Assembly (NCBI GenBank): GCA_026416665.1
Contig: JAOAET010000041.1
Coordinates: 10,425 to 74,424 of the forward strand
DNA: 64,000 nt
From: Candidatus Omnitrophota bacterium
GTDB taxonomy: Bacteria; Omnitrophota; Gorgyraeia; Gygaellales; Profunditerraquicolaceae
Direction of reading: 5' to 3'
Shown here: piece by piece, positions 9,672 through 49,772 of the stretch
Layout of the letters: each line of letters starts with the position of its first letter
How positions within the stretch are numbered: position 1 is the first letter of the stretch
The notes under the pieces: generated by a model
What the model was told of the DNA's origin: nothing
Databases searched by the model: none
What the model saw: only the letters and a program-made list of their open reading frames with translations
Position numbers and translations under genes: made by a program

Positions 9672-9682
9672 GGAGTTTTACA

Positions 9683-31985: not shown

Positions 31986-32930
31986 ATGATAAGATTATTT
32001 AAAATAAGTTTAATAGCTGTTATACTCAGTCATATAATAGATATCTCTTCTGTCTTTGCGCAAGCAACATTACAAGAAGAGTTCAATAAGTTAAAGAAGC
32101 AGTATGAATTGGTGGTCGCCGACAGAGATAATATTTTAGCCCAGACAAAGGGATTACTTGAATATAAAAATCGTTATAAGGAATTAGAAACAGAGTATGA
32201 CAAACTAAAAAAAGAAAATGACCAACTGAAAATAGACCTTCAATTAGCTAAAGAACAAATTACTAATCTCCAGCAGCTGCAAGGTGAATGGGAGATAACT
32301 AAAGGTCAGCTTGAACGAGAAAATAAAGAGTTAAAGGCATCTTTAGAAAAGGTTACTGTGGAATACAAGATGCTTCCGGAATTACGTAAGGAGTTAAATT
32401 CAATTAAAAATGAAAACACAGCACTTAGACGTTCTATGCAGTCACTTGAAGCAAAGGTAAAACAGCTAAATCAACAAAAACTTAATGACGATGCACAGCT
32501 TGAGATATACCGTATCCAAATAAAAGATTTAAAGAAACGTTATGAACAGGCACTGGCAAAAAATAGAGAATTAGAAAAACGAGCACAAAACCTACCTAAA
32601 CGTTTTGCAGAGTTGGCTCGTGAGAACAAAATGCTTATTAAAGAGACAGCACTAATGCATTATAATTTAGGTGTCTTTTATACAAAGAATAAGGAATTTT
32701 CACGGGCAATAGCGGAGTTTGAAAAAGCAGCAGAGCTTAATCCTGAAGACCCAGCAGTTTATTATAATCTTGGTTATATCTATGCAGAATACCTAGTAAA
32801 TAGGCCTAAGGCAATTGAATACTTTAAAAAGTATCTAGGTGTAGCCAAACCAGGGGATAAGGATATGGACTGGGTTAAGAAATATATTGTAACATGGGAA
32901 ACGTGGGAGGGTAAAAAACCAATGAAATAA
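31986..32930 (+). CDS. coiled-coil protein with C-terminal TPR domain (short paralog of the 1175 aa protein)
   Basis: Signal/TM, about 200 aa of coiled coil. The C-terminus MHYNLGVFYTKNKEFSRAIAEFEKAAELNPEDPAVYYNLGYIYAEY...KKYIVTWE is collinear with the C-terminus of 26489..30016. Confidence 0.65.
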   Translation: MIRLFKISLIAVILSHIIDISSVFAQATLQEEFNKLKKQYELVVADRDNILAQTKGLLEYKNRYKELETEYDKLKKENDQLKIDLQLAKEQITNLQQLQGEWEITKGQLERENKELKASLEKVTVEYKMLPELRKELNSIKNENTALRRSMQSLEAKVKQLNQQKLNDDAQLEIYRIQIKDLKKRYEQALAKNRELEKRAQNLPKRFAELARENKMLIKETALMHYNLGVFYTKNKEFSRAIAEFEKAAELNPEDPAVYYNLGYIYAEYLVNRPKAIEYFKKYLGVAKPGDKDMDWVKKYIVTWETWEGKKPMK

Positions 32931-33531: not shown

Positions 33532-34440
33532 ATGTATGAGGCCTACTGGGGGCTAACAGAAAAACCATTTGAAAATACCCCTGACCCACGTTTTTTCTAC
33601 TACTCACAACAACATAAAGAGGCAATTGCCCGCATGCTCTATGTGGTGCGTGAGCATAAAGGGGCAGCTCTTTTTACAGGAGAATATGGTTGCGGGAAAA
33701 CACTTCTTTCACGTATCTTATGGCAGGAATTACAACAGGAGAATCGCTACCAACCTGTATTTATCTTAAATCCCCGCCTGTCGGGTGTAGAGTTTATTCA
33801 AGAAATTGTCCATCAGTTAGGAGGTGCTTTTGAATCTCAGGCAAAGATTGATTTATTTCATTGTCTACATAAGATACTCTACGCCAACCATAACGCAAAT
33901 AAACACAGTGTTATTATTATTGATGAGGCACAGGCAATTAAAGATAAAGATACTTTCGAAGAGATAAGATTGCTTTTAAATTTCCAGTTGGATAATGCCT
34001 TTCTTTTAACCATTATCCTGTTGGGACAACCAGAGTTAAAATTTACTGTAATGAGTCTTCCACAATTTATGCAAAGAATGGCGGTTCGTTTTCATTTGAA
34101 GGCCTTTAATGAAATAGAGACCAGACAATATATTGAACATCGCTTAGCAGTCTGTGGAGTGAAACGACAACTGTTTGCGGACGAGGCATATAAAGAGATA
34201 TATGTTGTTACCGGTGGCATACCCCGTCGTATTAATACCATATGTGATTTGGCTTTGTTAGTTGGTTTTGGTTTAGGTTTGACTATTATAGACCACCAAA
34301 CCATCATAAAAATTAATCAGGACTTAGAATCACCTGATTTTAACGGTTCACTTCAACAACCTCTACAGACCGCTAGTGATAATTCTACAAATAACGGAGC
34401 AAGTCAGATTGATTCCTTAAAAGTCAAACCACAGACATAG
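33532..34440 (+). CDS. ExeA/GspA/MshM-like AAA+ ATPase
   Basis: N-terminal YWGLTEKPFENTPDPRFFYYSQQHKEA...LFTGEYGCGKTLLSR (ExeA signature plus Walker A) and a Walker B IIIIDEAQ. Confidence 0.75.
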   Translation: MYEAYWGLTEKPFENTPDPRFFYYSQQHKEAIARMLYVVREHKGAALFTGEYGCGKTLLSRILWQELQQENRYQPVFILNPRLSGVEFIQEIVHQLGGAFESQAKIDLFHCLHKILYANHNANKHSVIIIDEAQAIKDKDTFEEIRLLLNFQLDNAFLLTIILLGQPELKFTVMSLPQFMQRMAVRFHLKAFNEIETRQYIEHRLAVCGVKRQLFADEAYKEIYVVTGGIPRRINTICDLALLVGFGLGLTIIDHQTIIKINQDLESPDFNGSLQQPLQTASDNSTNNGASQIDSLKVKPQT

Positions 34441-34463: not shown

Positions 34464-35564
34464 ATGTTAAGTATTCTAAATGTATTGAAAAAATATTATG
34501 AAGAGAAGAAGAAGACAGCTGAAGGTGTATCTTCTAATTCTGAAAAAGAGCGTTCAGATGTAACTTCAATAGTACAGAATTTAGAACTTCCTTCCTTGGC
34601 AGACTGCGGTGCTACAAGAGAATCAATAAGTATTTTTACTGTGGTAAACAGACAGTCAGAGGAAGAGAAGGCTCAGAAAGCAAGAGAATTTTATTTTAAT
34701 CTTGTAAATTGGCTAAGAAAGATTTATACAACAGAATTCCAAGCGAATGCACAATTTAAAGAAGAGTGTTTTAGTTTTATTGATGAGCAGTTAACGTATC
34801 TTAACACTGCCGTTGAGGAATTGATTCATCAAGCAAATAGTGACTATCCTGTTGATGAGACCTGGCTTGCTTCTCATGCAGCAGCAGTAAGTGTGATTGC
34901 TTTAGAGATAGCCAAGGGGTTAGAATATAATAGGCAGAAGCTTATGGAACTGGCAGCTTGTGTATTCTTTCATGATATTGGAATGCTTAAGATTTTGGAC
35001 ATTGTCCAGAAACAATCACAATTAAGCAAAGAAGAGTTGGCGCAGATAAGACAACATCCTATTATGGGGACAAGTCTTTTAGGGACGATGAATCTTGGAC
35101 TATTTAGTTGTATAGGTGAGGTTATATTACAAGAGCATGAGCGGATAGATGGTAGTGGGTATCCTCAAGGTTTAAAGCAAGATACAATTAATGAATATGC
35201 AAAGATATTGGGCCTTGCGGATATTTACGAAGCACTTACTCATAATCGCCCTTATCGTAGAAGAATTACACCACCTAAGGCAATAAACTTGATTCTAAAT
35301 AACAAACATCTGTTTGATGCGAAAGTTTTGAAAAAACTTTTAGAACGCATAGGGGTCTTTCCAGCAGGGAGTCTGGTGCGTCTAAATACAAAAGAAATTG
35401 GGGTGGTCACGAAGATTAACCATCAGCTTCCACTTAGGCCCACAGTGTTAGTTTTATTTGAAGAGAAAGGAACAAGACTTTCGGCACCAAAAGAACTTGA
35501 CCTCTCAAAAAATTTTTTACTTTGTATTGAGGAGTGTATTGAGGAAAATGTAACAGTATCTTAA
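34464..35564 (+). CDS. HD-GYP domain protein (c-di-GMP phosphodiesterase family)
   Basis: HDIGMLKI and HERIDGSGYPQGL motifs in the C-terminal half. The N-terminal half has no recognisable domain. Confidence 0.75.
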   Translation: MLSILNVLKKYYEEKKKTAEGVSSNSEKERSDVTSIVQNLELPSLADCGATRESISIFTVVNRQSEEEKAQKAREFYFNLVNWLRKIYTTEFQANAQFKEECFSFIDEQLTYLNTAVEELIHQANSDYPVDETWLASHAAAVSVIALEIAKGLEYNRQKLMELAACVFFHDIGMLKILDIVQKQSQLSKEELAQIRQHPIMGTSLLGTMNLGLFSCIGEVILQEHERIDGSGYPQGLKQDTINEYAKILGLADIYEALTHNRPYRRRITPPKAINLILNNKHLFDAKVLKKLLERIGVFPAGSLVRLNTKEIGVVTKINHQLPLRPTVLVLFEEKGTRLSAPKELDLSKNFLLCIEECIEENVTVS

Positions 35565-35573: not shown

Positions 35574-37346
35574 ATGTGGCAGAGCAAGGGCTTATTTACA
35601 ATTGGCATTGTGGGATTTGGATTAGTTGCGCTAACCACTTTTGTTGCTACAGAATTATCACGGCAAAAGGAAATTCAAATTCAGCTTAACCAGCTTCTTT
35701 CAGATGCCTATAAAGAAAAAGAGTCACTTTCTGGAACAATAGAACAGCTAAAAGAAGACCTTAACCAGAAGCAACAACTACTATCTAAACTCTCGGATGT
35801 GCAGGCGATCCATCAGGCATTGATTACTGCACAACAAAATGTAGAGATGTTAACCGCAGAAGTAAATAGACTTAATAAGGAACGTTCTAACTTACAGGCA
35901 GAAAATGTTAGTTTAAATACACGCTTTCAAAATACTACTAAAGAATATATGAAAGTGTTAGCAGAACTGAAAGCCGTAAAAGAAGAATTGAATCGTGTTA
36001 ATCAGCAGGCTGCCCCTGAACGTAAAAAGCTTGAACAGGTAAATAAGCTTTTAGAAGAAAAAACACAAGAATTCCTGAAACAGCAAAAGGAGTTGGAGGC
36101 AATAAAAGCACAACTAAAGAATGTAAACGACAATAATAAAAATCTTCAAAATAAAGTGGTAAGCCTTGAGCAAGAAAGACAAAAACTTCTTTCACAGGTT
36201 AAATCTTTAGAAACACAATTAAATAGTCGTGTTCCGTCTTCGCGAAATTGGGAGCAGACAATATCCGAGTTAAAAAGAACCTTAGCTGAGCGTGATAAGG
36301 AAATTACACAGCTTCAAGAACGCCTACAGCAGGTGCAGGAACAATCCACAAAGGCTATCCAAACGAGTTCCTTAACAGATAGACAAAAACAGATGCCACA
36401 ATTAAAGGATGAGAGACTTCAACGCCAAATAGATGAACTTCACAAGATAAATACACAGCTTAAAGAAGAAGTCACACGTCTCTCAGATGAATTGGCCCAG
36501 GAGCGTCAAAAGGTTAATCGGTTGGCACGTAGTTCACAGATAGTTTCGCCCGATATTAAGAAAATAGAAACTATGCAGGAAGAAATGAAGCGTCTGTCTG
36601 ATATTCTTATGCGAAAAGAGTTTGAGATAGATGAAGCTAAAAAAGAAACCTTAAGCTATAAAGAGAAACTTATTGAGATGCAAGAAAAGTTAAATCGTTT
36701 AGAGGCTTATGCAAACTCCACACGAGTAGCCAAAGATCAGTTGTTGGAATTACAGAATCAGAAGGCTCTATTAGAGTCGCGTCTTGCTGAAGCACAGGCA
36801 CAGCTTGCTAAGAAAAATGAGCTAATTGAGTCTTTACAAAAGAACATTGACTTCTTGAATCAAGATATAGCAAAAAAAGATGAACAAATACGTAAGATAG
36901 AAAATGAACTTTCTTTCTTAAGCAGAAAATCTAAGGAGGAATTGGAACAGGAAAAAGCACGGTCTACTGAAATTAATTTATTGTATTCCAGTCTTAAAGC
37001 ACAGCTTGCCCAGTATGCTGACGCCCTAAAACTTAAAGATGCACAGAGTGAACAAGACCGCAAACAGATTGCCAAACTACAGGAAGAGATTTTACAAGTT
37101 CGGCAAAAGGCTGAGAGATTAGAAACGGAGTTAGCTGAAGCGCGTGAACGACAACGGAAAGCTATGGATGATTTGTCTGCAGCAGTTCGGCTCAATGCAG
37201 TTTTACAGGAAAGACTTTTTGGTACATCCGAAAAATCTAACATCTCTTATAACCTTACAGATACCTTAGAATCAGAAAGCCAACGGCTCAAGGCAGAGGA
37301 GATGCGTAAGAAAATAGAAGTTATTCTTGAGCCAAAGAAGAATTAA
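35574..37346 (+). CDS. membrane-anchored coiled-coil protein (590 aa)
   Basis: N-terminal TM (LFTIGIVGFGLVALTTFVA), then continuous heptad-rich sequence. Confidence 0.55.
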   Translation: MWQSKGLFTIGIVGFGLVALTTFVATELSRQKEIQIQLNQLLSDAYKEKESLSGTIEQLKEDLNQKQQLLSKLSDVQAIHQALITAQQNVEMLTAEVNRLNKERSNLQAENVSLNTRFQNTTKEYMKVLAELKAVKEELNRVNQQAAPERKKLEQVNKLLEEKTQEFLKQQKELEAIKAQLKNVNDNNKNLQNKVVSLEQERQKLLSQVKSLETQLNSRVPSSRNWEQTISELKRTLAERDKEITQLQERLQQVQEQSTKAIQTSSLTDRQKQMPQLKDERLQRQIDELHKINTQLKEEVTRLSDELAQERQKVNRLARSSQIVSPDIKKIETMQEEMKRLSDILMRKEFEIDEAKKETLSYKEKLIEMQEKLNRLEAYANSTRVAKDQLLELQNQKALLESRLAEAQAQLAKKNELIESLQKNIDFLNQDIAKKDEQIRKIENELSFLSRKSKEELEQEKARSTEINLLYSSLKAQLAQYADALKLKDAQSEQDRKQIAKLQEEILQVRQKAERLETELAEARERQRKAMDDLSAAVRLNAVLQERLFGTSEKSNISYNLTDTLESESQRLKAEEMRKKIEVILEPKKN

Positions 37347-38225: not shown

Positions 38226-38372
38226 AGTGGTAATGGGGCCAGAATTATTTCTGTCTTAAGTTTAATTTCTTTTTAAAACCAACATCTAATTCCAGAGACA
38301 GTAACATTTAAGATTAAATTTTTGATTACATATATATCTTTTTTTAATAAAAACTATGGTAAAATAAATTAT

Positions 38373-38660
38373 ATGGATACACTCTACGAAAAAAATCCTG
38401 ACGTTATTTTTAGAAAAATTGCTGGTGAATATCTGCTTATGCCCATAAAACAAAAGGCAGTAGATTTAAGAAGTATCTATACCTTAAACGAAACAGCTTC
38501 CTGTATCTGGCAACTTCTTGATGGTAAAACAACTATTGGTGATATACAAAAAGCACTTTGTGAGCAATTTGATATTACTTCAGAGCAAGCACTTTGGGAT
38601 ATTCAAGAATTTGTTAGTCAACTGGAGGCGTTAGGTTTTATTCATAGAATAAGCCGATAG
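38373..38660 (+). CDS. PqqD-like protein (RiPP recognition element, RRE)
   Basis: About 95 aa. NETASCIWQLLDGKTTIGDIQKALCEQFDITSEQALWDIQEFVSQLEALGFI is the PqqD/RRE pattern. The start was chosen at the internal ATG 38373. Confidence 0.6.
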   Translation: MDTLYEKNPDVIFRKIAGEYLLMPIKQKAVDLRSIYTLNETASCIWQLLDGKTTIGDIQKALCEQFDITSEQALWDIQEFVSQLEALGFIHRISR

Positions 38661-38661: not shown

Positions 38662-40419
38662 ATGAAGCAGGTGCTTTTATGTATTCCGCCTGACTACGAC
38701 CATGAATATCCTGCCTTAGGAACAGCGGTTCTTCAGGCGTATCTTAAGAAACACAAGGTTTCTTGTTTACAAATCGACTTAAATCTTGCTTATCGAAAAT
38801 TTCTTGCCCAGCATGTCTGGGCAGAAACAGAGCTTACTTTAGAGGAACAAATTTTTTTCCTACCTTGGCTTATAAAGAAATTCTTTCGCAACTGTCTTAA
38901 AGGTCGTTATTACGAAGATTGTCTTGCCCGCCAATCAGATGGAATCTTTCCAGAGTTGCCTTATGGTAACAACACCAACAGTTCCTTCTTTTTCTGTGAG
39001 CATTTACTTTCTTCAGAATATCTATTTAGATATCTTGAAGATGAAGAAGAAAATACCTTTTGGCAGTTTTTTACACAAAGTGGCATCTTAGATATAATTC
39101 AACAAGAAGACATAAAACTAGTAGGAATCTCTATTATTTCTCCTTCACAGGCAATTGCTTCATTGACATTAGCTTTACTGATTAAGAAGAGATTTCCCCA
39201 AGTGCATGTAAATATCGGTGGACAGTGGCCTACGCTTTACAGACGTCAAATTTTAGAACATAGACAGTTATTTAGATGTTTTGATAGTGTAATCGTCTTT
39301 GAGGGAGAAGTTGCTTTACTAGAATTAGCAAGAAGAGTTTGCGCAAACAAAGAAATTACAGGTATTGCTAATGTTATTACCAAAGATACAAAACTAAATG
39401 AGCACTTTAGAATTGCTGAGATAGATATGCGTAGACTGCCACCACCTGATTTTGAAGGCCTTCTCCTAGGAGAATACGACGGTGCAAGGGATGGCCAGAT
39501 TAGTTTAACTTTTGAGAGTTCTCGAGGTTGTTACTGGGGGCGTTGTGCCTATTGTGTAGATTTACCTTTACCTAAACCCAGTTATCGTATAAAATCAGCA
39601 CAATTAGTAGTAAGAGATATGTGTTATTTAAAGGATAAATTTGGAGCAAGCTTTTTACTATTGAGTGACCCTGGACTTTCTTGTCGTCAGATGGTAGAGA
39701 TTTCGGAAGAGATTATTCGGCAGGGAGTAAAAATTAATTGGTGGACAATGGCACGGCTTGATCCTGGATTTAAGAAAGAACATTTTGAACTTGCCCATAA
39801 AGCAGGCCTTTGCCAGATAAATTTTGGTTTTGAAACAGCATCTGAACGTCTAAGTAAACTTTTAGACAAGGGGAACCTAAGAGAACGTAGTTCTCGCATT
39901 ATCCGAGACTGTGCCTTAAGTGGTATAAAGGTGGATTTGCAGACAATGCTGGGGTTACCGCAGGAAACTTATGAAGAGGCTCTAGAAACAATAGATTTCT
40001 TGCTAGAACACAAAGAGTTTATCAGCCATGTTACCTTTAATATCTATTACCTTACACCTGAGAATTATGTGTATTATAACCCTTACAGGTATGGTATAAG
40101 TTATGACAAAGAAAAAGTTTTGCCTTTTTCTTTCTTTATTCCTTTTCAAAATTTATATGGGATAGATATGGAGAAAGCAGCACAGATAGAAAAAATTTAT
40201 TATGCCTTGGTAGAAAAAGAAAAAATAACAAGCAAAGCCAAAGAAGAAATTGGGAAAATAGACTTATTTAGTTCTACTGAAACAGAAAACAGCCAGCTTT
40301 TAAAAGAGGTGTTTATAACTTTGTTAGATCAAACAGTAAGTATTAAATATTACTATGATGAAAAGACTGATACCTGTACTTTTTTAGAAGAAGAGGATGT
40401 CTTTTCGCAAAGAAGGTAA
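38662..40419 (+). CDS. B12-binding-domain radical SAM enzyme
   Basis: N-terminal cobalamin-binding-like Rossmann segment, then SSRGCYWGRCAYC (Cx4Cx2C radical SAM cluster motif). 585 aa. Confidence 0.75.
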   Translation: MKQVLLCIPPDYDHEYPALGTAVLQAYLKKHKVSCLQIDLNLAYRKFLAQHVWAETELTLEEQIFFLPWLIKKFFRNCLKGRYYEDCLARQSDGIFPELPYGNNTNSSFFFCEHLLSSEYLFRYLEDEEENTFWQFFTQSGILDIIQQEDIKLVGISIISPSQAIASLTLALLIKKRFPQVHVNIGGQWPTLYRRQILEHRQLFRCFDSVIVFEGEVALLELARRVCANKEITGIANVITKDTKLNEHFRIAEIDMRRLPPPDFEGLLLGEYDGARDGQISLTFESSRGCYWGRCAYCVDLPLPKPSYRIKSAQLVVRDMCYLKDKFGASFLLLSDPGLSCRQMVEISEEIIRQGVKINWWTMARLDPGFKKEHFELAHKAGLCQINFGFETASERLSKLLDKGNLRERSSRIIRDCALSGIKVDLQTMLGLPQETYEEALETIDFLLEHKEFISHVTFNIYYLTPENYVYYNPYRYGISYDKEKVLPFSFFIPFQNLYGIDMEKAAQIEKIYYALVEKEKITSKAKEEIGKIDLFSSTETENSQLLKEVFITLLDQTVSIKYYYDEKTDTCTFLEEEDVFSQRR

Positions 40420-41872
40420 TCTTATAAAAATGAGAGCATTTCCTGTATCAATGATGGAAGACCACGACCAGGCCTATTTTTTCTGGAAGAAGCAAGGTCT
40501 AAAAGGATTTACTCTTTTACATATTGATGCACATCTTGACTTTGGTTGGTTGCCAGAACTTGACTGGCAACAATTGCCCACTATTTCTTTTTCACAATTA
40601 CCTGCTTTGCAATCACAACTGTTGCTTAATCCTTTTATTACTTCAAAAGAAAAACTACTTAATATTGGTAATTTTATTTGCTCTGCTATTAGAGATGGTA
40701 TTGTTAGACGGTTGTTTTGGATTGTTCCTGAGCCAACATTAAATTGTCTGCGCGGAAATTATTTCTTGCAGAAGCAGATAAAACAAATCTTACGGCTAAA
40801 AAAAACCGATACAGGTAGCTTTTTGATAAAGCAAAGAAGTATTAATTTCCGCTTGGCAGGAGTTGAGGTTACTGTTTGTGGTTTAAGTGACTTCTGTTAC
40901 GTAGAAGAGCCAGTGCTTCTGGATATAGATGTAGATTTTTTGGTTACTGGCTATATCTGGAATGACGTTGATCCTTGTCGTATTCCTTGGATATACCCTG
41001 ACCAGTTATATGAGTTGGTAAGTAAGAAAATTTCTCAAATTGAGGCCTTAACTATAGCCTATTCAGTGGAAGGAGGCTTTACCCCTCTAAAATTCAAATT
41101 CCTTGGTGATTACCTGCGACTTTACTTTACAGAGGACTTTAGCAAAGAAGATGAAGACAGTTTAGAGAGAAGAAAAGAGGCAATATATTTAGAAGAACAG
41201 AAGCAATACGACAAAGCAGAAGCCATTTATGAGGAACTTTTAAAAATTAACCCAAAAGATGCCTCAATTTATTTTGCTCTTTATTTGTTGAACTTAAACA
41301 GTCACATAGCCGATATTACAAAAGCGAGAAATTATTTCTACAGGGCTATTCAAATTGACCCGACATATTCCACAGAATATAATAATTACGGCATTCTCTA
41401 TGCACGCAATGGCCGTTATAGCCAGGCAAAAAAGTATTACCAAAGGTTCTTAGAGATGTGTCCGACTAATGCTTCTTGCTGGGAAGGATTAGGTTTTATT
41501 GCTTTAAGAGAAAGAGATTACACAGCCTCTCTGAGATTTTTTAAAAAGTCCTTAGAATATGATTCACAAAGATTAGCTAGTCAATTGGGTGTAGCAATTA
41601 TTCATTTTTATCAAGGGGTTTTAGATAAGGCAGAAGAGATGCTTTTTTCGTTAAAAGAGAAGTTAACTGATAATTTTGAAATCTATTGGTGGCTGGCACG
41701 CATTGCCCATAAAAAAGGGCTTAATAAACAGGCAATTAATTACTACAAGAAGGCAGTTTTAACTGGTGGTGAAGGAGTAGCTGTTCACTGGTATCTGGCA
41801 AGTTTGTATTTAAAAGAAAAAAATTTTTTCAGAGTAACAGAAGAATTAAGCCGTATTATTCAACAGATTTAA
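40397..41872 (+). CDS. TPR-repeat protein with N-terminal UPF0489/arginase-like domain
   Basis: N-terminal FTLLHIDAHLDFGW (DAHxD-like metal-site motif). The C-terminal half has at least 5 TPR repeats. The start may instead be the ATG at 40430. Confidence 0.5.
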   Translation: MSFRKEGNLIKMRAFPVSMMEDHDQAYFFWKKQGLKGFTLLHIDAHLDFGWLPELDWQQLPTISFSQLPALQSQLLLNPFITSKEKLLNIGNFICSAIRDGIVRRLFWIVPEPTLNCLRGNYFLQKQIKQILRLKKTDTGSFLIKQRSINFRLAGVEVTVCGLSDFCYVEEPVLLDIDVDFLVTGYIWNDVDPCRIPWIYPDQLYELVSKKISQIEALTIAYSVEGGFTPLKFKFLGDYLRLYFTEDFSKEDEDSLERRKEAIYLEEQKQYDKAEAIYEELLKINPKDASIYFALYLLNLNSHIADITKARNYFYRAIQIDPTYSTEYNNYGILYARNGRYSQAKKYYQRFLEMCPTNASCWEGLGFIALRERDYTASLRFFKKSLEYDSQRLASQLGVAIIHFYQGVLDKAEEMLFSLKEKLTDNFEIYWWLARIAHKKGLNKQAINYYKKAVLTGGEGVAVHWYLASLYLKEKNFFRVTEELSRIIQQI

Positions 41873-41875: not shown

Positions 41876-42154
41876 ATGTTTTTACAGAATAAACTAAAGA
41901 GGTGTTTTCAAAAAAACGAAGATATTATTGAAGAAGAAAAAGACAGGATAATTACTCTTTTTGACCCGTATCGTAGAGTAGCAATTAGATTAAGTCCTAC
42001 TGGATATAGGATTTGGCAGTTAATAGATGGTCGCCGTCAAGTATCCGATATTATTGAAGAATTGAAAAAAGATTTTGAGGTCAATGAAAAAACCATCTGT
42101 AGAGATGTTATATGTTTTCTGGATAAGTTAGCTAAAAGAGAGATAATCAAATAA
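41876..42154 (+). CDS. PqqD-like protein (second discrete RRE)
   Basis: 92 aa. RLSPTGYRIWQLIDGRRQVSDIIEELKKDFEVNEKTICRDVICFLDKLAKREII is the PqqD pattern. Confidence 0.55.
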   Translation: MFLQNKLKRCFQKNEDIIEEEKDRIITLFDPYRRVAIRLSPTGYRIWQLIDGRRQVSDIIEELKKDFEVNEKTICRDVICFLDKLAKREIIK

Positions 42155-43275
42155 TGTTTTGTTCAATTCAGCAAAGAAAATTTGCGGATTTATGTAACGA
42201 ACTCGATTCTGTGGCTATTAAAGAAAAGATTCCTTATATGTGTGCCTTTGAACTTACTTATCGGTGCAATTTATCCTGCTGTCACTGTTATTGCAATTTA
42301 CCAGCAAATCATCCCAACAAAGAAAAGGAGATTCCCACAAATAAGGTTAGGCAACTTCTTGATGAAATGGTAGATAGTGGGTGTTTATGGTTATTGTTGA
42401 CAGGGGGTGAGGTGTTTTTACGTGAAGATTTTTGGCAAATCTATCTGTATGCCTTAAGAAAAGGTTTTCTTATTGACCTGTTTACCAATGCGACATTACT
42501 AGATGAGGAGAAAGTGAAACGTCTTTCCGATTACCCACCTCTTTCTCTAGAAATAAGTTTATATGCTGCAAAGGAACAAATTCATGATAATATAACTGGA
42601 GTGTGTGGTTCATTTAAGCGGTTAATGAATGCTATCACTGCCCTTAAAAAATACAATGTACCTTTCTCATTAAAAAGTATTTTGATGAAAGAGAACATTG
42701 CTGAACTTACTGCTATGCGTAAATTAGCCAAGGATTATCAGGTAAGTTTTCGTTATGATACATTAATCTGTCCTCGCTTAGATGGAGGTAACTTGCCCTT
42801 GATTCATCGGTTAAGCGAATGGGAAATGGCACAATTGGATATATTAGATGATTACCCTATTTTGGAGAAGATTTTTCAGGAATATTGGGCTAAACCAATG
42901 TCAGAGCCACTTATCTGCGGAGCAGGGGTATTTGCCTTTAATATTAATCCATACGCAGTGTTAAGCCCTTGCACGATGTTTAAGAGTTTTCAATATTCGT
43001 TACATAATGTGTCTTTTTTGGAAGCTTGGAAAAAGATGACTGGTGAGTTTGAAAAAAAAATAAAATATCTTCTGGAACCTCTTTGCCAAAAATGTAATAT
43101 GGTTTATATTTGTCCCAATTGTCCTGCCTGGAGTGAGTTGGAGACAGGCAGTTTAAAGGGTATTGTCAGACATATCTGCCTATATGCCAAGACACTAGAA
43201 AAGATTTACAGGATAACAAAGGAGGGCAATAATGGAGAAAAAGCCTTATCAAAAACCAACAATGCAGGAGGTTAA
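42154..43275 (+). CDS. radical SAM enzyme with C-terminal SPASM domain (peptide-modifying maturase family)
   Basis: CAFELTYRCNLSCCHCY (Cx3Cx2C) and a Cys-rich C-terminus CQKCNMVYICPNCPAWSE typical of SPASM auxiliary clusters. Confidence 0.8.
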   Translation: MFCSIQQRKFADLCNELDSVAIKEKIPYMCAFELTYRCNLSCCHCYCNLPANHPNKEKEIPTNKVRQLLDEMVDSGCLWLLLTGGEVFLREDFWQIYLYALRKGFLIDLFTNATLLDEEKVKRLSDYPPLSLEISLYAAKEQIHDNITGVCGSFKRLMNAITALKKYNVPFSLKSILMKENIAELTAMRKLAKDYQVSFRYDTLICPRLDGGNLPLIHRLSEWEMAQLDILDDYPILEKIFQEYWAKPMSEPLICGAGVFAFNINPYAVLSPCTMFKSFQYSLHNVSFLEAWKKMTGEFEKKIKYLLEPLCQKCNMVYICPNCPAWSELETGSLKGIVRHICLYAKTLEKIYRITKEGNNGEKALSKTNNAGG

Positions 43276-43390
43276 ACTTTCTATTGATGATACTTTATTA
43301 TCTGCCTGTCGTAAGACAGCAACTTCACGGGTCAATCCTAAACGGGGAACTTCTTGCCGTGCCTGCAGAACAACCTATCGTTCTTCATAA
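43232..43390 (+). CDS. candidate RiPP precursor peptide (52 aa, not in the supplied ORF track): MEKKPYQKPTMQEVKLSIDDTLLSACRKTATSRVNPKRGTSCRACRTTYRSS
   Basis: ATG at 43232 with an AAAGGAGGG RBS 6 nt upstream. It overlaps the last 44 nt of the rSAM-SPASM gene in another frame. The leader has a lasso-type YxxPxL element (YQKPTM). The core is Cys/Thr/Ser/Arg-rich with 3 Cys. Confidence 0.45.
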   Translation: MEKKPYQKPTMQEVKLSIDDTLLSACRKTATSRVNPKRGTSCRACRTTYRSS

Positions 43391-43408
43391 AACAGTTACC
43401 TCCTTATA

Positions 43409-44293
43409 ATGAAAGATGATATTGGAGTAAGTAATAGCTTTAGTGTCTTACTTAACATAGCAGGTTTAGGCCTGTCTATTAAAAGTAGTGTGCCTTTTCG
43501 TTGTTTTAAGGATTTTAGTTTCTATGAAAAGTTCATTGTAAATGAATTTCCTGAGATATCGTGTTTTCTTACCCATCGAATAGGAGTGCCGAATCTTTAT
43601 TTAAATACTGCCACAGAAACTTTTACTACCCAAAATTGGCTACTTCAAACCACTACAGACAAAAAAATTCTTATTGTTGGTCCACAACAAAAAAACAAAC
43701 TAGTAGATAATGTAGCAGTATTTAACTCAGATTATAGTCAGGGTATTTTGTATCAGAAACATATCTATGAGATATTTCGTAGGTTTATAGACCAGTTTTT
43801 ATTTATCAATATTTTAAGTAGAAGAAAAGGATTTCTATTTCACGCCTCAGGTGTAATTTACCAGAATAAAGGACTTTGTTTTGCTGGCGTATCTGGAAGC
43901 GGAAAATCTACTTTACTTAGTCTTTGGCGAAGAGAAGTCCCAGAGGATGCTTTATTAAACGATGACAGAGTAGCATTGCGTAGAATAAAAAGAAGGTGGT
44001 TAATTTTTGGAACGCCTTGGTATGGTGAGTCAAAAGTTGCTACCAACAAATCGGCACGGTTAAATACCATTTTTTTTATTCGCCATGCGGATAAGACTTT
44101 TCTTAAGCCGATATCCGTAAACCAGGCATTAGCAAAGTTAGGGGTACTGGCTTTATTACCTTTATGGGATAAATCTTCTGTTAAGCAGGTATTATCTTCC
44201 TTTGAGATGTTGGTAAAAGAGGTTCCTATGTATGAATTTGGTTTCCGACCTGATAAAACGGCAGTAGAAACAATAAAAGAGCTCTTATGCTAA
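43409..44293 (+). CDS. HPr-kinase-C-like P-loop kinase
   Basis: GLCFAGVSGSGKSTLLS Walker A in an HprK_C-like context. Homologues occur as precursor-peptide kinases in lasso-type clusters. Confidence 0.55.
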   Translation: MKDDIGVSNSFSVLLNIAGLGLSIKSSVPFRCFKDFSFYEKFIVNEFPEISCFLTHRIGVPNLYLNTATETFTTQNWLLQTTTDKKILIVGPQQKNKLVDNVAVFNSDYSQGILYQKHIYEIFRRFIDQFLFINILSRRKGFLFHASGVIYQNKGLCFAGVSGSGKSTLLSLWRREVPEDALLNDDRVALRRIKRRWLIFGTPWYGESKVATNKSARLNTIFFIRHADKTFLKPISVNQALAKLGVLALLPLWDKSSVKQVLSSFEMLVKEVPMYEFGFRPDKTAVETIKELLC

Positions 44294-46455
44294 TGGAGGT
44301 TGTTTGTTCTCAGCAAGAATTTGATAAATTATTGACACAGATACGCTCAAAGGTAAACTATGTTACTTTTCAGGCAAGAGGAGCAAGTATGTTTGCCTTT
44401 ATCAAGAAAGGGGATTGGTTAAAAATAGAAATTCTGCCTCAGAACAGCGATTGTTTAATTCGTAAGGGAGACGTTGTCCTTTTTAAAAAACAAGATATGC
44501 TTTTTCTACATAGAGTTATACGGATAAATAAGGAAGGATTTTTAGTAAAAGCAGATGCCTCTTTAGGAAGTGACGGAGTTATTTTGCCTGATGAGATTAT
44601 AGGAAAACTTATTACTATTCAAAGAGGCAGAAAATTGATAGATTTAGATAAACGAGTTTACCGTTTGGTAGCATTAGGTATAGCCAATTTAAGTAATCTG
44701 TTTTCTTGCTTATGGTTTATTTTCGATAAACTGTGCATGTTTTATCTTAAGATACTGCATTGCTTACAGAAAGTTTCCCTCTACAGAAAAATAGCCCGTA
44801 TGTTTTGTGGAGATATTATTATTCGGCAAGCAACTACAAATGACCAACAGCAGTTACGTGATTTGTATCGTATGGCTGGTATTGATGTACAAGAAGGGCT
44901 GAGTAAAATAAAGTTAGAAGGATTTTGGTTAGTAGCCCAGAGAAATAAAAAGATAGCCGCAGCGGTTACTATTTCTGCCAGTGAAAGTGACCCAAGTTTT
45001 TGGCTTATCTTTGGCTTGGAAGTAAAGCCATGGTTGCGCGGTATGGGAATCGGGAAAAAAATTATTCAACACGCAATAAGCATGGCCAAGGAAAGAGGTG
45101 CAAAAAAGATAGGTTTGTTTGTATCCAAAAAAGCAACCGCTGCAGTTAATCTTTATCGGTCTTTGGGTTTTATTCCCACAGAAGAAGTTCCCGAAGGTTA
45201 TAATCGCTGGCAAGAAGATTTGTTTTTAGTATACAGTGATTGTTTTAAGAAGAGAAAAAAACAACAAGGAGAAGCAAAAAAAATGTATTCAGAAGAGCCA
45301 CTTAGTTCTTCCTTAAAGGCTTCCTTAAAGGCCCTTATTCAACTGGTTTGCTTAGATAATCAATCTAGAAGTAACTTTAATTATAGAAATTTTTCTGTTA
45401 TACAGTGGCAAGATTTACTAAAACTCTCCATTAAGGAAGGATTATTTTTTCCTTTCTGGCAGGGTTTACAAAGATATTTTCATCTACAACAGAAAACTCA
45501 AAACTCTCCATTAACCTTTACAAAGATGAACTTCATCAAAGAGATTATTCCTGAGCAAGTAGCAGAAGAGTTTATGGATAACTATTACCATCATCTTGCC
45601 GCAAGTATGATGTTTAGTTCAGCGGTAGAATCAATTCTAAACCATCTAGAGAATCATCAAATACTTACACTTCTTATGAAAGGTCCAACGGTAGATAATA
45701 TTATTTACGGTGACTACTTACGTAGCCGTGGCGATTTAGATATTGTGGTGAAACAAAAAGATTGGCCTTTACTTACTAGGGTTTTAGAAAATATAGGATA
45801 TTTTATACAACTACCGCCAAGAGATTACCCATTATTTGAATACCAGAATAGTCTTTTATTCTTACCTAAAAAAGAAGGCATACCCATTCATCTACATAAT
45901 AACTTATTTAATAATTTATATTTAGGCGTTGATGGGCTATTTTTGCCTTCTATGGAAAAAGTTTGGCAAGAGACTATACCGCTTAAGAATTACCAGTGGA
46001 TTCGTGCTTTGCAACCTGAAATGCAGATTATTTATCTTTGTGAACATGCAGTTAAACATAATTTTGAACAGTTGGTTTTAGCTTATGAAATCCAGAGGAT
46101 AATTCTTATATATGCGAATTCTCTGGACTGGAATAAATTAGTGATTCTTACCCAATCAATGGGGTTAACCCAGGTTGTATATACTGCCTTAGAAGTGGTC
46201 AGAGACCTGTTTAACATAGATTTACCTGTTGAACGGTTAAAGAGATTACAACCGAAGCTTACTGTTGTCCAGAGATGTTTTCTAAGAAAAGTAAGAGATA
46301 GGAAGATATCTTATTGGACTTGTTATCCTTTATATCTTAGTATGCGCAAAAAATTTTTTTATAAACTGCGTTTTATCTGGTACAGTTTTTTCCCACCTGG
46401 TTTTCCTTTGCGAGGATATCTTACTAGGATAAGGAAATTAATACTGGCACAATGA
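44287..46455 (+). CDS. tri-domain fusion: S24/S26-peptidase-like N-terminus + GNAT acetyltransferase + uncharacterised nucleotidyltransferase (NTP_transf_5-like)
   Basis: GASMFAFIKKGDWLKIE (peptidase S24/S26 fold), a GNAT core (RGMGIGKKIIQHAISMAKERGAKKIGLFV) and a C-terminal LLMKGPTVDNIIYGDYLRSRGDLDIVV nucleotidyltransferase motif. 722 aa. Confidence 0.55.
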   Translation: MLMEVVCSQQEFDKLLTQIRSKVNYVTFQARGASMFAFIKKGDWLKIEILPQNSDCLIRKGDVVLFKKQDMLFLHRVIRINKEGFLVKADASLGSDGVILPDEIIGKLITIQRGRKLIDLDKRVYRLVALGIANLSNLFSCLWFIFDKLCMFYLKILHCLQKVSLYRKIARMFCGDIIIRQATTNDQQQLRDLYRMAGIDVQEGLSKIKLEGFWLVAQRNKKIAAAVTISASESDPSFWLIFGLEVKPWLRGMGIGKKIIQHAISMAKERGAKKIGLFVSKKATAAVNLYRSLGFIPTEEVPEGYNRWQEDLFLVYSDCFKKRKKQQGEAKKMYSEEPLSSSLKASLKALIQLVCLDNQSRSNFNYRNFSVIQWQDLLKLSIKEGLFFPFWQGLQRYFHLQQKTQNSPLTFTKMNFIKEIIPEQVAEEFMDNYYHHLAASMMFSSAVESILNHLENHQILTLLMKGPTVDNIIYGDYLRSRGDLDIVVKQKDWPLLTRVLENIGYFIQLPPRDYPLFEYQNSLLFLPKKEGIPIHLHNNLFNNLYLGVDGLFLPSMEKVWQETIPLKNYQWIRALQPEMQIIYLCEHAVKHNFEQLVLAYEIQRIILIYANSLDWNKLVILTQSMGLTQVVYTALEVVRDLFNIDLPVERLKRLQPKLTVVQRCFLRKVRDRKISYWTCYPLYLSMRKKFFYKLRFIWYSFFPPGFPLRGYLTRIRKLILAQ

Positions 46456-47241
46456 GCCATCTTTTTGGACTCTTCTTATTGCCCAGTCAAACATAAGAAT
46501 GGAAAAAGGTAAAAGGGTTATAGAAAAAAAGAAGAGGAAAAAAATCTGAGGTAACAGTTTCTCCAAAGAATAATTTTTATACACTGCAGATTGTATTGCC
46601 TCAATAGCGTAGGTAATGGGAAATAAACGTGCACAAATTTGAAGCCAAAAAGGCAATACTGTAATTGGGAAATACACGCCTCCGAGTAATCCTTCCAGAG
46701 TTCCGATTAACCAACTCAAAGGATTGGCTCGTTTAGTTATCATTACAAAGCTTGCAGAAAGTATACCTAAACCAGAAAAAGAGGTAATGGTAAGAAAAAG
46801 AATAACCGCGCAAGACACTATATTTATTTGCTGAAAGTCAATACGAAATAAAAAGACAGCTAAAAGAAGATAAATTATTAGGTCAACAGTAGCAATAATT
46901 AGATTCCACAGAACCAGTGAGAACAAAAAGACACTTATTCTAGTAGGTGTAGCAACAATAGCTTCAAGGGTACCTTGCTGTTGTTCTAAACGCAGACGGT
47001 CTGAGAATGCCCCTAAGCCCACACCAGCATAACCAAAAAATGCGCTACTTAGTAAGACGTAAGCAAAATAATTTACGCCAAAAGGTTCGAGATGCCTGAC
47101 TATGGTATGACCAAATAGTTTATCAATAAAGAAATAACTTAATAAATTAAAAAAGATACCGAGGATATTTAGAAAAAATGACAGACGGTAACTTGTCTCT
47201 TGAAGAAAATCTTTTTTAAGAAAAGCAAATACTCTACGCAT
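46438..47241 (-). CDS. ABC-2 type transporter permease
   Basis: 267 aa. Six TM segments and an ABC-2 membrane pattern. Confidence 0.65.
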   Translation of the reverse strand: MRRVFAFLKKDFLQETSYRLSFFLNILGIFFNLLSYFFIDKLFGHTIVRHLEPFGVNYFAYVLLSSAFFGYAGVGLGAFSDRLRLEQQQGTLEAIVATPTRISVFLFSLVLWNLIIATVDLIIYLLLAVFLFRIDFQQINIVSCAVILFLTITSFSGLGILSASFVMITKRANPLSWLIGTLEGLLGGVYFPITVLPFWLQICARLFPITYAIEAIQSAVYKNYSLEKLLPQIFFLFFFSITLLPFSILMFDWAIRRVQKDGSLCQY

Positions 47242-47242
47242 T

Positions 47243-48073
47243 CTATTTTTCTTGCTTAGAGGTTAATTCCAAAAACAACTCTTTAACAGATGCCTTAGGG
47301 TTGCGGGTCGCCTGTCTTAACTCTTCTTGAGTTCCAAAACCACAGACCCTGCCTTGTTTGATAATAAGATATAAGGTGGCTAACTCTTCTGCTTCTTCCC
47401 AGCGATGGGTGGTAAAAATTACAGTTGCTTTCTGACGTCCAAGTATTTCGTGTTTTAAGAATTCACGCAATTTTAGACAACAGCGGTAATCTAGACTTTT
47501 ACTTGGCTCATCCAACAGCAGAAGACGAGGTTCATGCATAAAAGCACGCACAAGTCCTATTTTTTGTTGCATCCCTGTAGAGTAATTGTCAAAGCGTTTA
47601 TCTAAAAAATCTATTTCAAACAGGTTAGATAACTTCTCAATTTGTTGGGAAGTTTGTTTTTTGGATAGGCCATAGAGAGAAGCAAAAAACTCTAAATTCT
47701 GTCTTCCGGTTAATCGCCAATAAAAAGTTCTTTCACTATTCGTTACCAGACCAATTAAACGTTTCAGTTTATAACCATTTTTGGTAGAATTAAGGCCATC
47801 AAAGATTATTTCTCCCTTATCAGGTAAAAGAATATTGGCAACAATCTTTAGGAGAGTAGTTTTGCCTGCTCCGTTAGGACCAAGTAGTGCTAATACTTGA
47901 CCAAATTCTAAAGAAAAAGATACATCAGATAGGGCAACTAATGGTTGTCGTGACGGGTGTCTAAAAAAAGGTAAGTTGTTTAAAACTAAGGGAAAAAAAA
48001 TCTTTGTAATACCTTTTACTTTTAGCATAGTTTTAAGTTTAGCAGATAAGTATCTGTGCGTCAACAGTAGCAA
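47243..48073 (-). CDS. ABC transporter ATP-binding protein
   Basis: Walker A LLGPNGAGKTTLLK, ABC signature YSTGMQQKIGL, Walker B LLLLDEPS. Confidence 0.8.
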   Translation of the reverse strand: MLLLTHRYLSAKLKTMLKVKGITKIFFPLVLNNLPFFRHPSRQPLVALSDVSFSLEFGQVLALLGPNGAGKTTLLKIVANILLPDKGEIIFDGLNSTKNGYKLKRLIGLVTNSERTFYWRLTGRQNLEFFASLYGLSKKQTSQQIEKLSNLFEIDFLDKRFDNYSTGMQQKIGLVRAFMHEPRLLLLDEPSKSLDYRCCLKLREFLKHEILGRQKATVIFTTHRWEEAEELATLYLIIKQGRVCGFGTQEELRQATRNPKASVKELFLELTSKQEK

Positions 48074-48216: not shown

Positions 48217-49098
48217 ATGGGTAGAAAAAAGGTAGTTATTATGTCGTGTTTAATTTTTTGTATCCTCATACTTATGAAGGATTTTGTTAATGCAGAGACA
48301 AAAGATAATAGTCAGGTGCCTGAGTGGCTTAAGCGCACCAGTTACGGAATAAATATTGACTCATCTCAGAAACCGAGAATTTATATTGAGACAGTACAAC
48401 CACTCTATCAGGATGAAGACAAGATAGATACTTTTTTTACCCATGGGCGTATAAATATTCAAAACGAAAGAGGTATTTACAACTTGGGTTTGGGCTATCG
48501 CAGGTTACTTACAGAAGAATTTTTAGCAGGGATAAATACCTTTTTTGACTACCAAGATTTACATAACCACTATCGCACAGGTTTTGGTTTAGAAGCAATT
48601 GGCAAGCGTGCTGAAGCAAGATTAAATACTTATTTTGGACTTTCACCGACTCGCAAAGTTAAAGAGACCGCCAGCTCTACTCAATATGAAAAGGCCGTAG
48701 ATGGTTTCGATGTAGAACTTGGAGGACCGGTGCCCTATTTACCTTGGTTAAAATTATTTGGTAGTTATTATCAATATGACTTTAAGAAATTTAAAGATAT
48801 GCAAGGTTCAAAAATTCGTAGTGAAATAAAATTGATAAAATGCCTGACTATTAATTTAGAGACATATGATGATAATAAAGGTGAGCGTGAATATGCAATG
48901 GACACCAGATTTAATTTTGCCTTTGATAATTTTAGTTTCAAGGATTTTTTGAGTGCTTTCAAGTTGGAGAACGAAAAATATAAAGAAGTCAACTTGCGTG
49001 ACCGTACCTTAGACAGGGTAGAGAGAAACTTTAATATTCAGGTAGAAAAATGGGCTGAGGTTACAGGTATGACTGTGGAGATCGGAAGGGGAAGTTAA
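48217..49098 (+). CDS. outer-membrane beta-barrel resembling the inverse-autotransporter (intimin/invasin) beta domain, without passenger
   Basis: Signal peptide. YNLGLGYRRLL...GINTFFDYQD...YRTGFGLEAIG...GFDVELGGPVPYLPWLKLFGSYYQYD is collinear with the intimin beta-domain motif series. Confidence 0.45.
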   Translation: MGRKKVVIMSCLIFCILILMKDFVNAETKDNSQVPEWLKRTSYGINIDSSQKPRIYIETVQPLYQDEDKIDTFFTHGRINIQNERGIYNLGLGYRRLLTEEFLAGINTFFDYQDLHNHYRTGFGLEAIGKRAEARLNTYFGLSPTRKVKETASSTQYEKAVDGFDVELGGPVPYLPWLKLFGSYYQYDFKKFKDMQGSKIRSEIKLIKCLTINLETYDDNKGEREYAMDTRFNFAFDNFSFKDFLSAFKLENEKYKEVNLRDRTLDRVERNFNIQVEKWAEVTGMTVEIGRGS

Positions 49099-49118: not shown

Positions 49119-49772
49119 ATGGAAAAAAAATTAATATTAGGATTAATAATATTATTTACCTTGCAAGTATCATCTTATGGTGATAACGTGGCTGTTACTC
49201 CTCAAGAATACATAGTTACTATTAATAAAATTGAATTCTATAACGAAGATACCTCTTCTTGGATCACCGTTGGTGAAGGAAAGCTTAGTTTTGATATTGC
49301 TTCAGTTAATGCCGGACAGACAGTGGGTAGTTATGTAGATGCTAGTGCCGTTGCCGAAGGTACTTATACGCAGGGAAGAGTTTATGTTTCACTTACCTTT
49401 TATTTAAAGGCCAGTGCTACTATTGATGGGACTACTTACTACACAACTGAAGGCGGATACGAGAATCCTTTCCCTGATTCTGAACTTCAAGGTTACATTG
49501 CTGCAAAAACTACAACGGATCCTAATCGCGCTTCCAGGGGAATATCGGTTCTTACCGAACAGGCTTTAGAAAGAGCAGGTTTTGATGTTGTAGGAGATAG
49601 TTTTATATTTGAAGGAGAAGTTCTATTACCTATTGTAGTAAAAAAAGGTTTTACCAAAAAGGTCAGAATTAATTTTAATGTAACAAATAGTGTAGCCTTT
49701 GAAGAGATTCCTTCCGGCGACGTGGTGTGTTATCCTTTACCGCCAGTACTTACTTTTAAGGTAATTGACTAA
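49119..49772 (+). CDS. secreted hypothetical protein
   Basis: Signal peptide (LILGLIILFTLQVSSYG). 217 aa, beta-rich composition. Confidence 0.4.
   Translation: MEKKLILGLIILFTLQVSSYGDNVAVTPQEYIVTINKIEFYNEDTSSWITVGEGKLSFDIASVNAGQTVGSYVDASAVAEGTYTQGRVYVSLTFYLKASATIDGTTYYTTEGGYENPFPDSELQGYIAAKTTTDPNRASRGISVLTEQALERAGFDVVGDSFIFEGEVLLPIVVKKGFTKKVRINFNVTNSVAFEEIPSGDVVCYPLPPVLTFKVID

Follow-up and report, generated by a model that had tools for sequence, protein, structure and literature searches.

A conserved 52-residue peptide as the probable precursor of a PqqD/radical SAM maturation cassette that recurs in exopolysaccharide-type loci

What does an open reading frame (ORF) of only 52 codons contribute to the locus of a Candidatus Omnitrophota bacterium in which it lies wedged between a radical S-adenosylmethionine (rSAM) gene and a kinase-like gene? 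The stretch in question, hereafter the window, comprises 64,000 nucleotides of contig JAOAET010000041.1, and a first-pass annotation made from its letters had proposed that the ORF encodes the precursor peptide of an rSAM-SPASM/PqqD cluster. Our comparisons support this proposal: codon patterns indicate that the ORF is a real gene under purifying selection, and we judge it likely, with a probability of about 0.85, that the peptide is the ribosomal precursor, i.e. the substrate, of a multi-enzyme peptide-maturation cassette. We base this reading on the purifying selection, on the fixed place of the gene between the PqqD/rSAM-SPASM genes and the gene for a ScmC-family protein, and on the division of the peptide into leader and core. 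The features of the peptide gene are these:

43232..43390, + strand: gene for the putative 52-residue precursor peptide (GenBank MCX7927424.1, hypothetical protein; read from the sequence)
43218..43226, + strand: Shine-Dalgarno sequence of the peptide gene, AAAGGAGGG (read directly from the sequence)
43232..43306, + strand: inferred leader, residues 1-25, MEKKPYQKPTMQEVKLSIDDTLLSA (low-entropy block in 114 aligned peptides; approximate boundary)
43307..43387, + strand: inferred core, residues 26-52, CRKTATSRVNPKRGTSCRACRTTYRSS (C26, C42 and C45; six Arg; C-terminal Ser)

The ATG at 43232 is followed by 52 sense codons and a TAA at 43388-43390, and the product, MEKKPYQKPTMQEVKLSIDDTLLSACRKTATSRVNPKRGTSCRACRTTYRSS, is exactly the translation that the first-pass annotation had quoted. 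The good ribosome-binding site that it had described is present as well, at a distance of 5 nt from the end of AAAGGAGGG to the ATG, or 6 nt if measured from the end of GGAGG; and the ORF does start 44 nt upstream of the stop codon of the rSAM gene 42154..43275. Its description of the ORF as unannotated did not hold: the public record for the identical protein, MCX7927424.1, reads 'hypothetical protein N2606_04735' and comes from a Candidatus Omnitrophica metagenome-assembled genome (MAG). The 44-nt overlap is confined to the clade of the window; elsewhere the two genes share 4 nt or stand 5-92 nt apart, and the peptide gene is clear of the rSAM gene in loci L006, L011 and L013-L015. The C-terminal tail of the rSAM enzyme that is encoded in the overlap (…GEKALSKT…, window 43232-43275, and its equivalents in L001-L010) differs in length and stop position among loci, and its weak conservation looks like a +2-frame shadow of the peptide start MEKKPYQKP rather than a constraint on the enzyme. 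A 41-residue ORF at 43284..43409, which overlaps the peptide gene in the +1 frame, was rejected as a gene: it is open in the window only and closed in the three homologous loci compared. No RNA family was found by an Rfam search of 37-47 kb, and promoter-like and terminator-like sites were no commoner than in shuffled sequence.

The case for a gene comes from comparison among loci. A word-indexed search returned three 52-residue homologues of 77-81% identity, each encoded immediately downstream of a radical SAM gene. When species-representative genomes were scanned for the rSAM protein, eight loci emerged (in MAGs of Omnitrophota, Planctomycetia and Deltaproteobacteria), and every one of them has a 52-residue homologue of 54-79% identity in the equivalent position. 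A further scan of metagenomes with an alignment of the downstream kinase gave at least two loci, and served as a test in the reverse direction: L016, found through the kinase alone, carries the peptide immediately upstream of that kinase. Altogether we compared twelve close loci (L001-L011 and L016, L001 being a duplicate of L007), in which the peptide is 54-81% identical, in the equivalent position, and of the same length and frame. Every related locus that covers the position has an equal-length homologue there, and a profile hidden Markov model (HMM) of the family matched exactly one ORF per locus.

For four loci (the window, L001, L002 and L003) we compared codons by Nei-Gojobori counts. 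The proportion of nonsynonymous differences (pN) is 0.08-0.19 and that of synonymous differences (pS) a saturated 0.51-0.97 when the overlapping codons are included; for the 37 non-overlapping codons only, pN is 0.12-0.19 and pS 0.51-0.97. Each pair of loci differs at 15-30 third codon positions and at 3-5 second positions, and all five alternative frames are interrupted by stop codons in at least three of the four loci. The motif GGAGG precedes the start codon in the window, L001 and L002, and L003 has the variant GGGGAGGGG. The first-pass annotation had staked the gene on the conservation of its reading frame: in the related loci the frame is kept, pN is low and pS is saturated. The peptide is moreover the best conserved gene of the cassette in the close loci, with 54-81% identity as against 33-59% for the enzymes (rSAM 45-55%, kinase 43-52%, arginase-TPR protein 38-43%, second PqqD protein 35-46%).

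Beyond the close loci the peptide belongs to a larger family. An HMM search of 1.84 billion representative proteins gave 23 matches (best E-value 1e-20) and a profile search of a 5.8-billion-protein set gave 106 peptides; combined, these searches yield about 115 relatives, almost all of 50-60 residues, none of them named and none with a Pfam domain. The window peptide itself matched nothing in a Pfam scan or in NCBIfam, and 28 aligned family peptides gave only weak, scattered NCBIfam matches. Motifs and Cys residues were counted over 115 peptides, and alignment and entropy were computed over 114. The leader follows the consensus KKxYxKPx[ILMV]xxVKLxxEEAVLAAC[KR] and is succeeded by a variable core with three Cys and a C-terminal [GA][ST]. 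The element [YWF]xxPx[ILMV] is present in 115/115 peptides, with an invariant Pro and with Tyr in 112 of 114; in the window it reads Y6-Q-K-P9-T-M11. The leader element that the first-pass annotation had likened to YxxPxL is therefore a signature of the whole family, and it matches the conserved leader motif of lasso peptides, which is bound by lasso B1 proteins (PMC10368454).

Spacing and variability set leader and core apart. The first Cys lies exactly 14 residues past [YWF]xxPx[ILMV] in 109/115 peptides; 107 of the 115 contain exactly three Cys, with C26 and the last Cys invariant and the latter usually seven residues before the C-terminus; and 108 of the 115 end in Ser or Thr (GS in 64, AS in 19). 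Counted relative to the Tyr, the majority of positions between K-3 and [KR]+21 have an entropy of no more than about 1.5 bits; behind the leader it is 2.9 bits or higher, with the exception of the Cys residues and of [GA][ST] at the C-terminus. Across the family the N-terminal 25-27 residues are thus conserved, whereas the core between the Cys residues is hypervariable in both sequence and spacing. A short ORF in the same orientation beside maturase genes, with a conserved leader and a more variable core, is what generic descriptions of precursors of peptides that are ribosomally synthesized and modified post-translationally (RiPPs) call for, and on these alignments the architecture of the family is the one expected of a RiPP precursor.

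Some traits are those of particular clades. The strongly basic C-terminal half that the first-pass annotation had noted is real for the Arg-rich core in the clade of the window and does not extend to the family as a whole; CxxC is present in the peptides of the window's clade. Two sub-clades (L018 6850-7002; L020 5774-5941) end in …APLP or …QGG, not in [GA][ST], and one of the two has the conserved core CHSSPNLTPKDPDC. We also considered a lipoprotein signal peptide, since the L-[AST]-[AG]-C junction is lipobox-like, and rejected it: the N-terminus is highly charged and lacks a hydrophobic core.

The peptide stands beside the rSAM gene and the HprK-like kinase gene in 12/12 close loci and in 10/10 more distant contexts, and the order of the cassette genes is identical in all close loci. 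In the window the cassette has eight genes, of which the peptide gene is listed above; the other seven and the neighbouring transporter are laid out as follows:

38322..38660, + strand: PqqD-family protein 1 (Pfam PqqD, 1.9e-18; the listed ORF begins with TTG, a putative start; conserved upstream of the B12-binding rSAM gene)
38662..40419, + strand: B12-binding radical SAM protein (B12-rSAM), RiPP C-methyltransferase-like (Pfam B12-binding and Radical_SAM; TIGR03975, 2.1e-34)
40397..41872, + strand: 491-residue protein with a peptide-arginase-like N-terminal domain and TPR repeats (NF052474, 1.2e-9; PF12640)
41876..42154, + strand: PqqD-family protein 2, putative RiPP recognition element (RRE) for the SPASM enzyme (Pfam PqqD, 1.7e-15)
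42154..43275, + strand: radical SAM protein with a SPASM-type C-terminal Cys domain, proposed crosslinking maturase (Pfam Radical_SAM, 4.4e-20)
43409..44293, + strand: ScmC-family (PF27840) P-loop protein with a PEPCK/HPr-kinase fold, putative peptide Ser/Thr kinase (directly after the peptide in every locus)
44287..46455, + strand: 722-residue protein with S24/S26-like peptidase (about residues 1-130), GNAT (about 200-310) and PF14907 nucleotidyltransferase (about 370-645) domains (Pfam; TIGR02228)
46438..48073, - strand: ABC-2 type transporter, permease and ATPase, candidate exporter (Pfam ABC2_membrane and ABC_tran; link to the cassette uncertain)

The second PqqD gene lies directly upstream of the rSAM gene in all loci, and the single PqqD protein of minimal cassettes is closer to the first PqqD protein than to the second. 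The description of the rSAM enzyme as SPASM-type agrees with Cys motifs that are conserved in 13 homologues: CX3CX2C (CNLSCCHC), C-x12-[G/A]-x4-C, CX2CX5CX2C and one further Cys downstream. Its best sequence matches in the PDB are SkfB and PqqE, and it reached no NCBIfam equivalog cutoff. The B12-rSAM protein scores 119 bits against TIGR03975, below the cutoff of 282. In the arginase-like domain MMEDHDxAY, HxDAHxDFG and LLDIDxDF are invariant in five homologues (EDHDQAY, DAHLD and LDIDVDF in the window), comparable to the motifs EEH(N/H)EAF, DXHXD and LDIDLDYFSC of peptide arginases (PMC12703449); its NF052474 score is 38 bits, against a cutoff of 350.

The kinase that the first-pass annotation had placed next to the peptide is the HprK-like ScmC protein directly downstream in every locus. 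PF27840.1 'ScmC' is the precomputed annotation on the identical protein P0120 and on most homologues, and matches to the HPr-kinase-related models stay below their cutoffs of 200 bits (HprK_rel_B 8.3e-8, 31.7 bits; HprK_rel_A 15.5 bits; TIGR04352/TIGR04355). The P-loop GVSGSGKS and the acidic pair in LLNDD are conserved, with E-D in place of D-D after the P-loop in the sub-clades of L018 and L020. A PDB sequence search with the kinase gave nothing significant; the relation to PEPCK and HprK is visible by fold search only, in which an AlphaFold2 model with a predicted local distance difference test score of 92 gave Foldseek matches to PEPCK (1e-7) and HprK/P (1e-5).

The three-domain protein matches PF14907 NTP_transf_5 (8.8e-31; 107.8 bits, above the gathering cutoff of 31.2), Acetyltransf_1 (2.1e-15), the archaeal-type signal peptidase model TIGR02228 (5e-7) and Peptidase_S24 (about 1e-4). 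Ser-Met, His-Arg and Gly-Asp are conserved in eight homologues of the peptidase domain, which we take to be the Ser/His pattern of endoplasmic-reticulum/archaeal-type signal peptidases. The peptidase, GNAT and nucleotidyltransferase domains form a single protein in the window, L004, L008 and L016 and are divided among two or three genes elsewhere (for instance L001 11007-13065 and L012 10022-11686); the GNAT domain is missing from minimal cassettes. An ABC-2 transporter also adjoins the cassette in L004, L011, L012 and L016.

From these parts we propose the following course of maturation. The leader KKxYxKPx[ILMV]xxVKL... would be bound as a β-strand by the PqqD-type recognition proteins, which would present the core to the rSAM-SPASM enzyme; this enzyme would crosslink the three Cys, most simply through Cys-to-carbon thioethers. 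In the clade of the window the arginase-like enzyme would turn some of the six core Arg into ornithine, and the B12-rSAM enzyme would C-methylate the peptide. The ScmC kinase would phosphorylate Ser or Thr, most likely the C-terminal Ser because it is near-invariant, and the PF14907 nucleotidyltransferase would then decorate the Ser phosphate, as in pseudomycoidin. Close to the conserved L-x-A-C junction the Ser/His S26-like peptidase would cut off the leader and so expose a new N-terminus, which may be acetylated by the GNAT domain, and the product would be exported. These steps do not carry equal weight: we regard thioether crosslinking as tentative, at somewhat less than even odds, and likewise the action of the kinase and the nucleotidyltransferase on Ser/Thr, and the conversion of Arg to ornithine and the methylation as more doubtful again.

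Several of the proposed steps have precedents. The HprK homologues PadeK and PsmK phosphorylate the C-terminal Ser of lasso precursors (PMC6993621; PMC8498205), BsfK phosphorylates an internal Ser, and a PsmN-type NTP transferase puts hexoses on phospho-Ser (PMC6993621). The fused 44287..46455 protein, too, has a parallel, in certain lasso clusters where nucleotidyltransferase and leader protease are joined in one protein (PMC6993621; PMC8498205).

A number of observations weigh against the precursor reading or parts of it. All source sequences come from uncultured MAGs or metagenomes, and every NCBIfam match to a named RiPP enzyme scores below its curated cutoff. The Pfam SPASM model gives no match to the rSAM enzyme, so that its assignment rests on the Cys motifs; in one of these, CX9-15GX4C, the window enzyme has Ala in place of Gly (residues about 255-273, PYAVLSPC), a Gly kept in 11/12 rSAM homologues, the pattern in L016 having matched a different, earlier stretch. 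We had expected clades without a C-terminal Ser or Thr to lose ScmC, and this expectation failed: where the peptides end in ...APLP or ...QGG, ScmC is retained and its P-loop is intact, and the C-terminal Ser is therefore not a universal kinase target. The number of core Arg is not cleanly tied to the presence of the arginase (P0119, with four Arg in its core, is not accompanied by a nearby arginase), and the residue preceding Cys26 is not always small across the family, which makes the leader cleavage site uncertain. Finally, in the close clade the enzymes are less conserved than the peptide over its full length, the core not excepted; this is not the usual picture in antimicrobial RiPPs, and a structural role or one like that of a cofactor would accord with it as well.

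How does the cassette relate to systems already described? With the phospho-lasso systems (paeninodin PadeA/B1/B2/K, pseudomycoidin PsmA/K/N and Bradymonas Bsf) it has in common a PqqD-type protein, a YxxPxL-type leader (PMC6993621, PMC8498205, PMC10368454), an HprK-superfamily kinase, an NTP transferase and a precursor that usually ends in Ser; the likeness of PsmN to the PF14907 enzyme is to be read with the proviso that PsmN may not belong to PF14907. A lasso cyclase (Asn-synthetase-like C protein) and a transglutaminase-type B2 protease had no Pfam or NCBIfam match in the cassette or among the other window ORFs scanned; the rSAM-SPASM enzyme and the S24/S26-like peptidase stand in their place. 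The core, moreover, contains no Asp or Glu, whereas a lasso core needs a macrolactam acceptor at position 7-9, and the first Cys lies 14 residues past the leader motif, whereas a lasso core begins 11 residues past it. The cassette is lasso-like at the level of leader, kinase and nucleotidyltransferase, yet it is no lasso system.

With sacti- and ranthipeptide systems (subtilosin AlbA, SkfB, SCIFF/CteB) the cassette shares a PqqD-like RRE, an rSAM enzyme with auxiliary-cluster Cys and a short multi-Cys precursor. Against the named maturase families AlbA, SkfB, StsB and CteB-like, however, the rSAM enzyme falls far below the NCBIfam cutoffs (AlbA 77 versus 850, SkfB 58 versus 300), and the kinase, nucleotidyltransferase, S26-like peptidase, arginase and B12-rSAM enzyme, as well as the distinct leader family, are foreign to these classes. 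SynChlorMet (ScmC, the PqqD-like ScmD and the rSAM-SPASM enzymes ScmE and ScmF, as named in NCBIfam and Pfam) has in common with the cassette the PF27840 ScmC-family protein, which here adjoins the peptide. The cassette is nonetheless a relative and not a member of the SynChlorMet equivalog set, because it misses the cutoffs for ScmD (33-40 bits; cutoff 100), ScmE (76; 400) and ScmF (51; 400), has no match to the ScmC model TIGR04249 at E ≤ 0.01, and contains a single SPASM enzyme where SynChlorMet has the ScmE/ScmF pair. To our knowledge, no precursor had been identified for SynChlorMet when that cassette was defined.

The peptide-arginase pathways (OspR of landornamide; FlmR/OhkR) invite comparison because the arginase-like domain here has three arginase-type motifs in conserved form and the core is Arg-rich. 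The precursor here lacks the DD(I/V)LF motif of FlmR/OhkR-type precursors, and the arginase-like enzyme, unlike FlmR, OhkR and OspR, is fused to TPR repeats and accompanies only part of the peptide family. The pathways for pyrroloquinoline quinone (PQQ; PqqA/D/E) and mycofactocin (MftA/B/C) likewise have a small, conserved, single-copy precursor beside PqqD and rSAM-SPASM proteins, and the best matches to the rSAM enzyme include PqqE and the mycofactocin maturase, with scores below the cutoffs; the peptide is unrelated in sequence to PqqA and MftA, and no downstream PQQ or mycofactocin genes accompany it. In the full-text literature we found no description of the cassette or the peptide family, one query having been swamped by unrelated 'SCMC' acronyms.

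In what surroundings does the cassette occur? The ten distant contexts comprise two P0042 contigs, L012-L015 and L018-L021, of which L021 is too short to show flanks. PqqD, rSAM, peptide and ScmC genes follow one another in this order in all ten; the S24/S26-like peptidase is present in most, with L015 and the short L021 as exceptions, and PF14907 was detected in 5/10. The accessory module (B12-rSAM, arginase-TPR protein and a second PqqD protein) was seen nowhere but in the clade of the window, in L016 and on the P0042 contigs. A gene order of exopolysaccharide (EPS) type recurs around the cassette: a PEP-CTERM-type AAA_22 ATPase, an HD-GYP protein, the cassette, an ABC-2 transporter, Poly_export, a Wzc-like kinase and Wzy. 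The window, L001/L007, L009, L012, L015, L016 and P0042 all have it, although their peptides are only 30-55% identical; L013, L014, L018 and L020 have no obvious EPS neighbours in the available DNA. Judged by gene content, the cassette is recurrent in several bacterial phyla, often within exopolysaccharide loci. In L013 (2339-7579) and L020 (6955-12992) it adjoins giant Peptidase_C25 (gingipain-like) and cadherin-repeat proteins.

In the window the cassette lies inside a large surface-polymer locus (20294-63306), which also holds a sensor kinase, Poly_export, a Wzc-like kinase, Wzy_C, a flippase, a methyltransferase and six glycosyltransferases; the window ORFs that were scanned include no exosortase. 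Other features of this locus are:

24639-26474 and 30235-31977: two secretins
26489-30016, 31986-32930 and 35574-37346: very long coiled-coil proteins
33532-34440: PEP-CTERM-type AAA_22 ATPase (TIGR03015, 221 bits, below the cutoff of 324)
34464-35564: HD-GYP protein
48217-49098: inverse-autotransporter beta-domain protein, between the ABC-2 transporter and the Wzc-like kinase
49119-49772: 217-residue protein without a family match, between the same two genes

Upstream, at 7724-13609, the window encodes cyclic di-GMP signalling proteins (a GGDEF protein, a PAS histidine kinase and a PAS-GGDEF-HD-GYP protein), and these together with the HD-GYP gene beside the cassette hint at cyclic di-GMP control of the locus.

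Could the peptide be something other than a precursor? That the ORF arose by chance from its overlap with the end of the rSAM gene and yields no product has next to no probability in our view. Short ORFs are plentiful in the AT-rich window, where 92 ORFs of at least 30 residues overlap the 16 kb from 36 to 52 kb, so that size alone does not set this one beyond chance, and its first 15 codons overlap a real gene; we ascribe gene status to it because its conservation across loci exceeds chance, not because of its size. The pN and pS of the 37 free codons with their third-position excess, the length and frame kept in all close homologues, the loci in which the gene is free of the rSAM gene and the profile matches down to 1e-20 among 1.8 billion proteins exclude the chance reading. 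A genuine small protein that is no substrate, such as a Cys-containing accessory subunit, a metal or Fe-S partner or a regulator of the rSAM enzyme or kinase, is a less extreme proposal and still an improbable one. It would account for three invariant Cys (with CxxC in the window clade), for the strong conservation that the entire sequence shows in the clade and for the translational coupling to both flanking enzymes. Yet a part that is hypervariable in sequence and spacing between and behind the Cys residues, preceded by 25 conserved N-terminal residues, is the pattern of a precursor and not of a folded partner, the N-terminal YxxPx[ILMV] is typical of leaders bound by RREs, and with one peptide match per locus the two PqqD proteins, the peptidase and the tailoring enzymes would have no other candidate substrate.

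A further proposal is compatible with the precursor reading and differs on the role of the product: the modified peptide would be a dedicated part of the surrounding EPS pathway instead of a secreted antibiotic; phosphorylated and glycosylated at its C-terminus, for example, it could act as a primer, an anchor or a regulator in the synthesis or export of the polymer. We consider this rather unlikely. In its favour, the EPS-type gene order is repeated despite peptides of such low mutual identity; the peptide gene is tightly packed or overlapping with both neighbours, a hint that synthesis is roughly stoichiometric; inside the clade the core shows very high conservation; and a PsmN-type enzyme is known to hexosylate phospho-Ser (PMC6993621). 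Against it, linkage is not function, no EPS genes are obvious in the available DNA of four distant contexts (L013, L014, L018 and L020), two of which lie beside the Peptidase_C25 giants, and the independent contexts number only about ten. We know of no precedent for peptide-primed bacterial EPS. Spelled out in full, namely that the family is the substrate of ScmC-type PqqD/rSAM-SPASM cassettes and that its matured, crosslinked and Ser-phosphorylated or glycosylated form is a non-antibiotic EPS component (a primer, an anchor or a control of polymerisation or export), the proposal is a little less likely again; the whole-peptide conservation in the clade and the recurrent EPS embedding keep a non-antibiotic, pathway-integrated role in play.

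In conclusion, the window peptide represents a new, unnamed precursor family and its cassette a new combination of known RiPP modules, uniting elements that are known separately: leader, kinase and nucleotidyltransferase of lasso type, a putative SPASM crosslinker, a peptide-arginase-like enzyme and a B12-rSAM enzyme. Its most unusual traits are that the peptide is so highly conserved over its whole length in the clade and that the embedding in EPS loci recurs. Enzymes that have been labelled merely 'hypothetical', 'PqqD family' or 'radical SAM' thereby gain a concrete candidate substrate, which makes their chemistry testable by co-expression, and genome-mining tools gain a family of about 115 members with a clear leader signature. 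The repeated placement of the cassette in EPS loci of several phyla suggests that the modified peptide may be involved in polysaccharide production.

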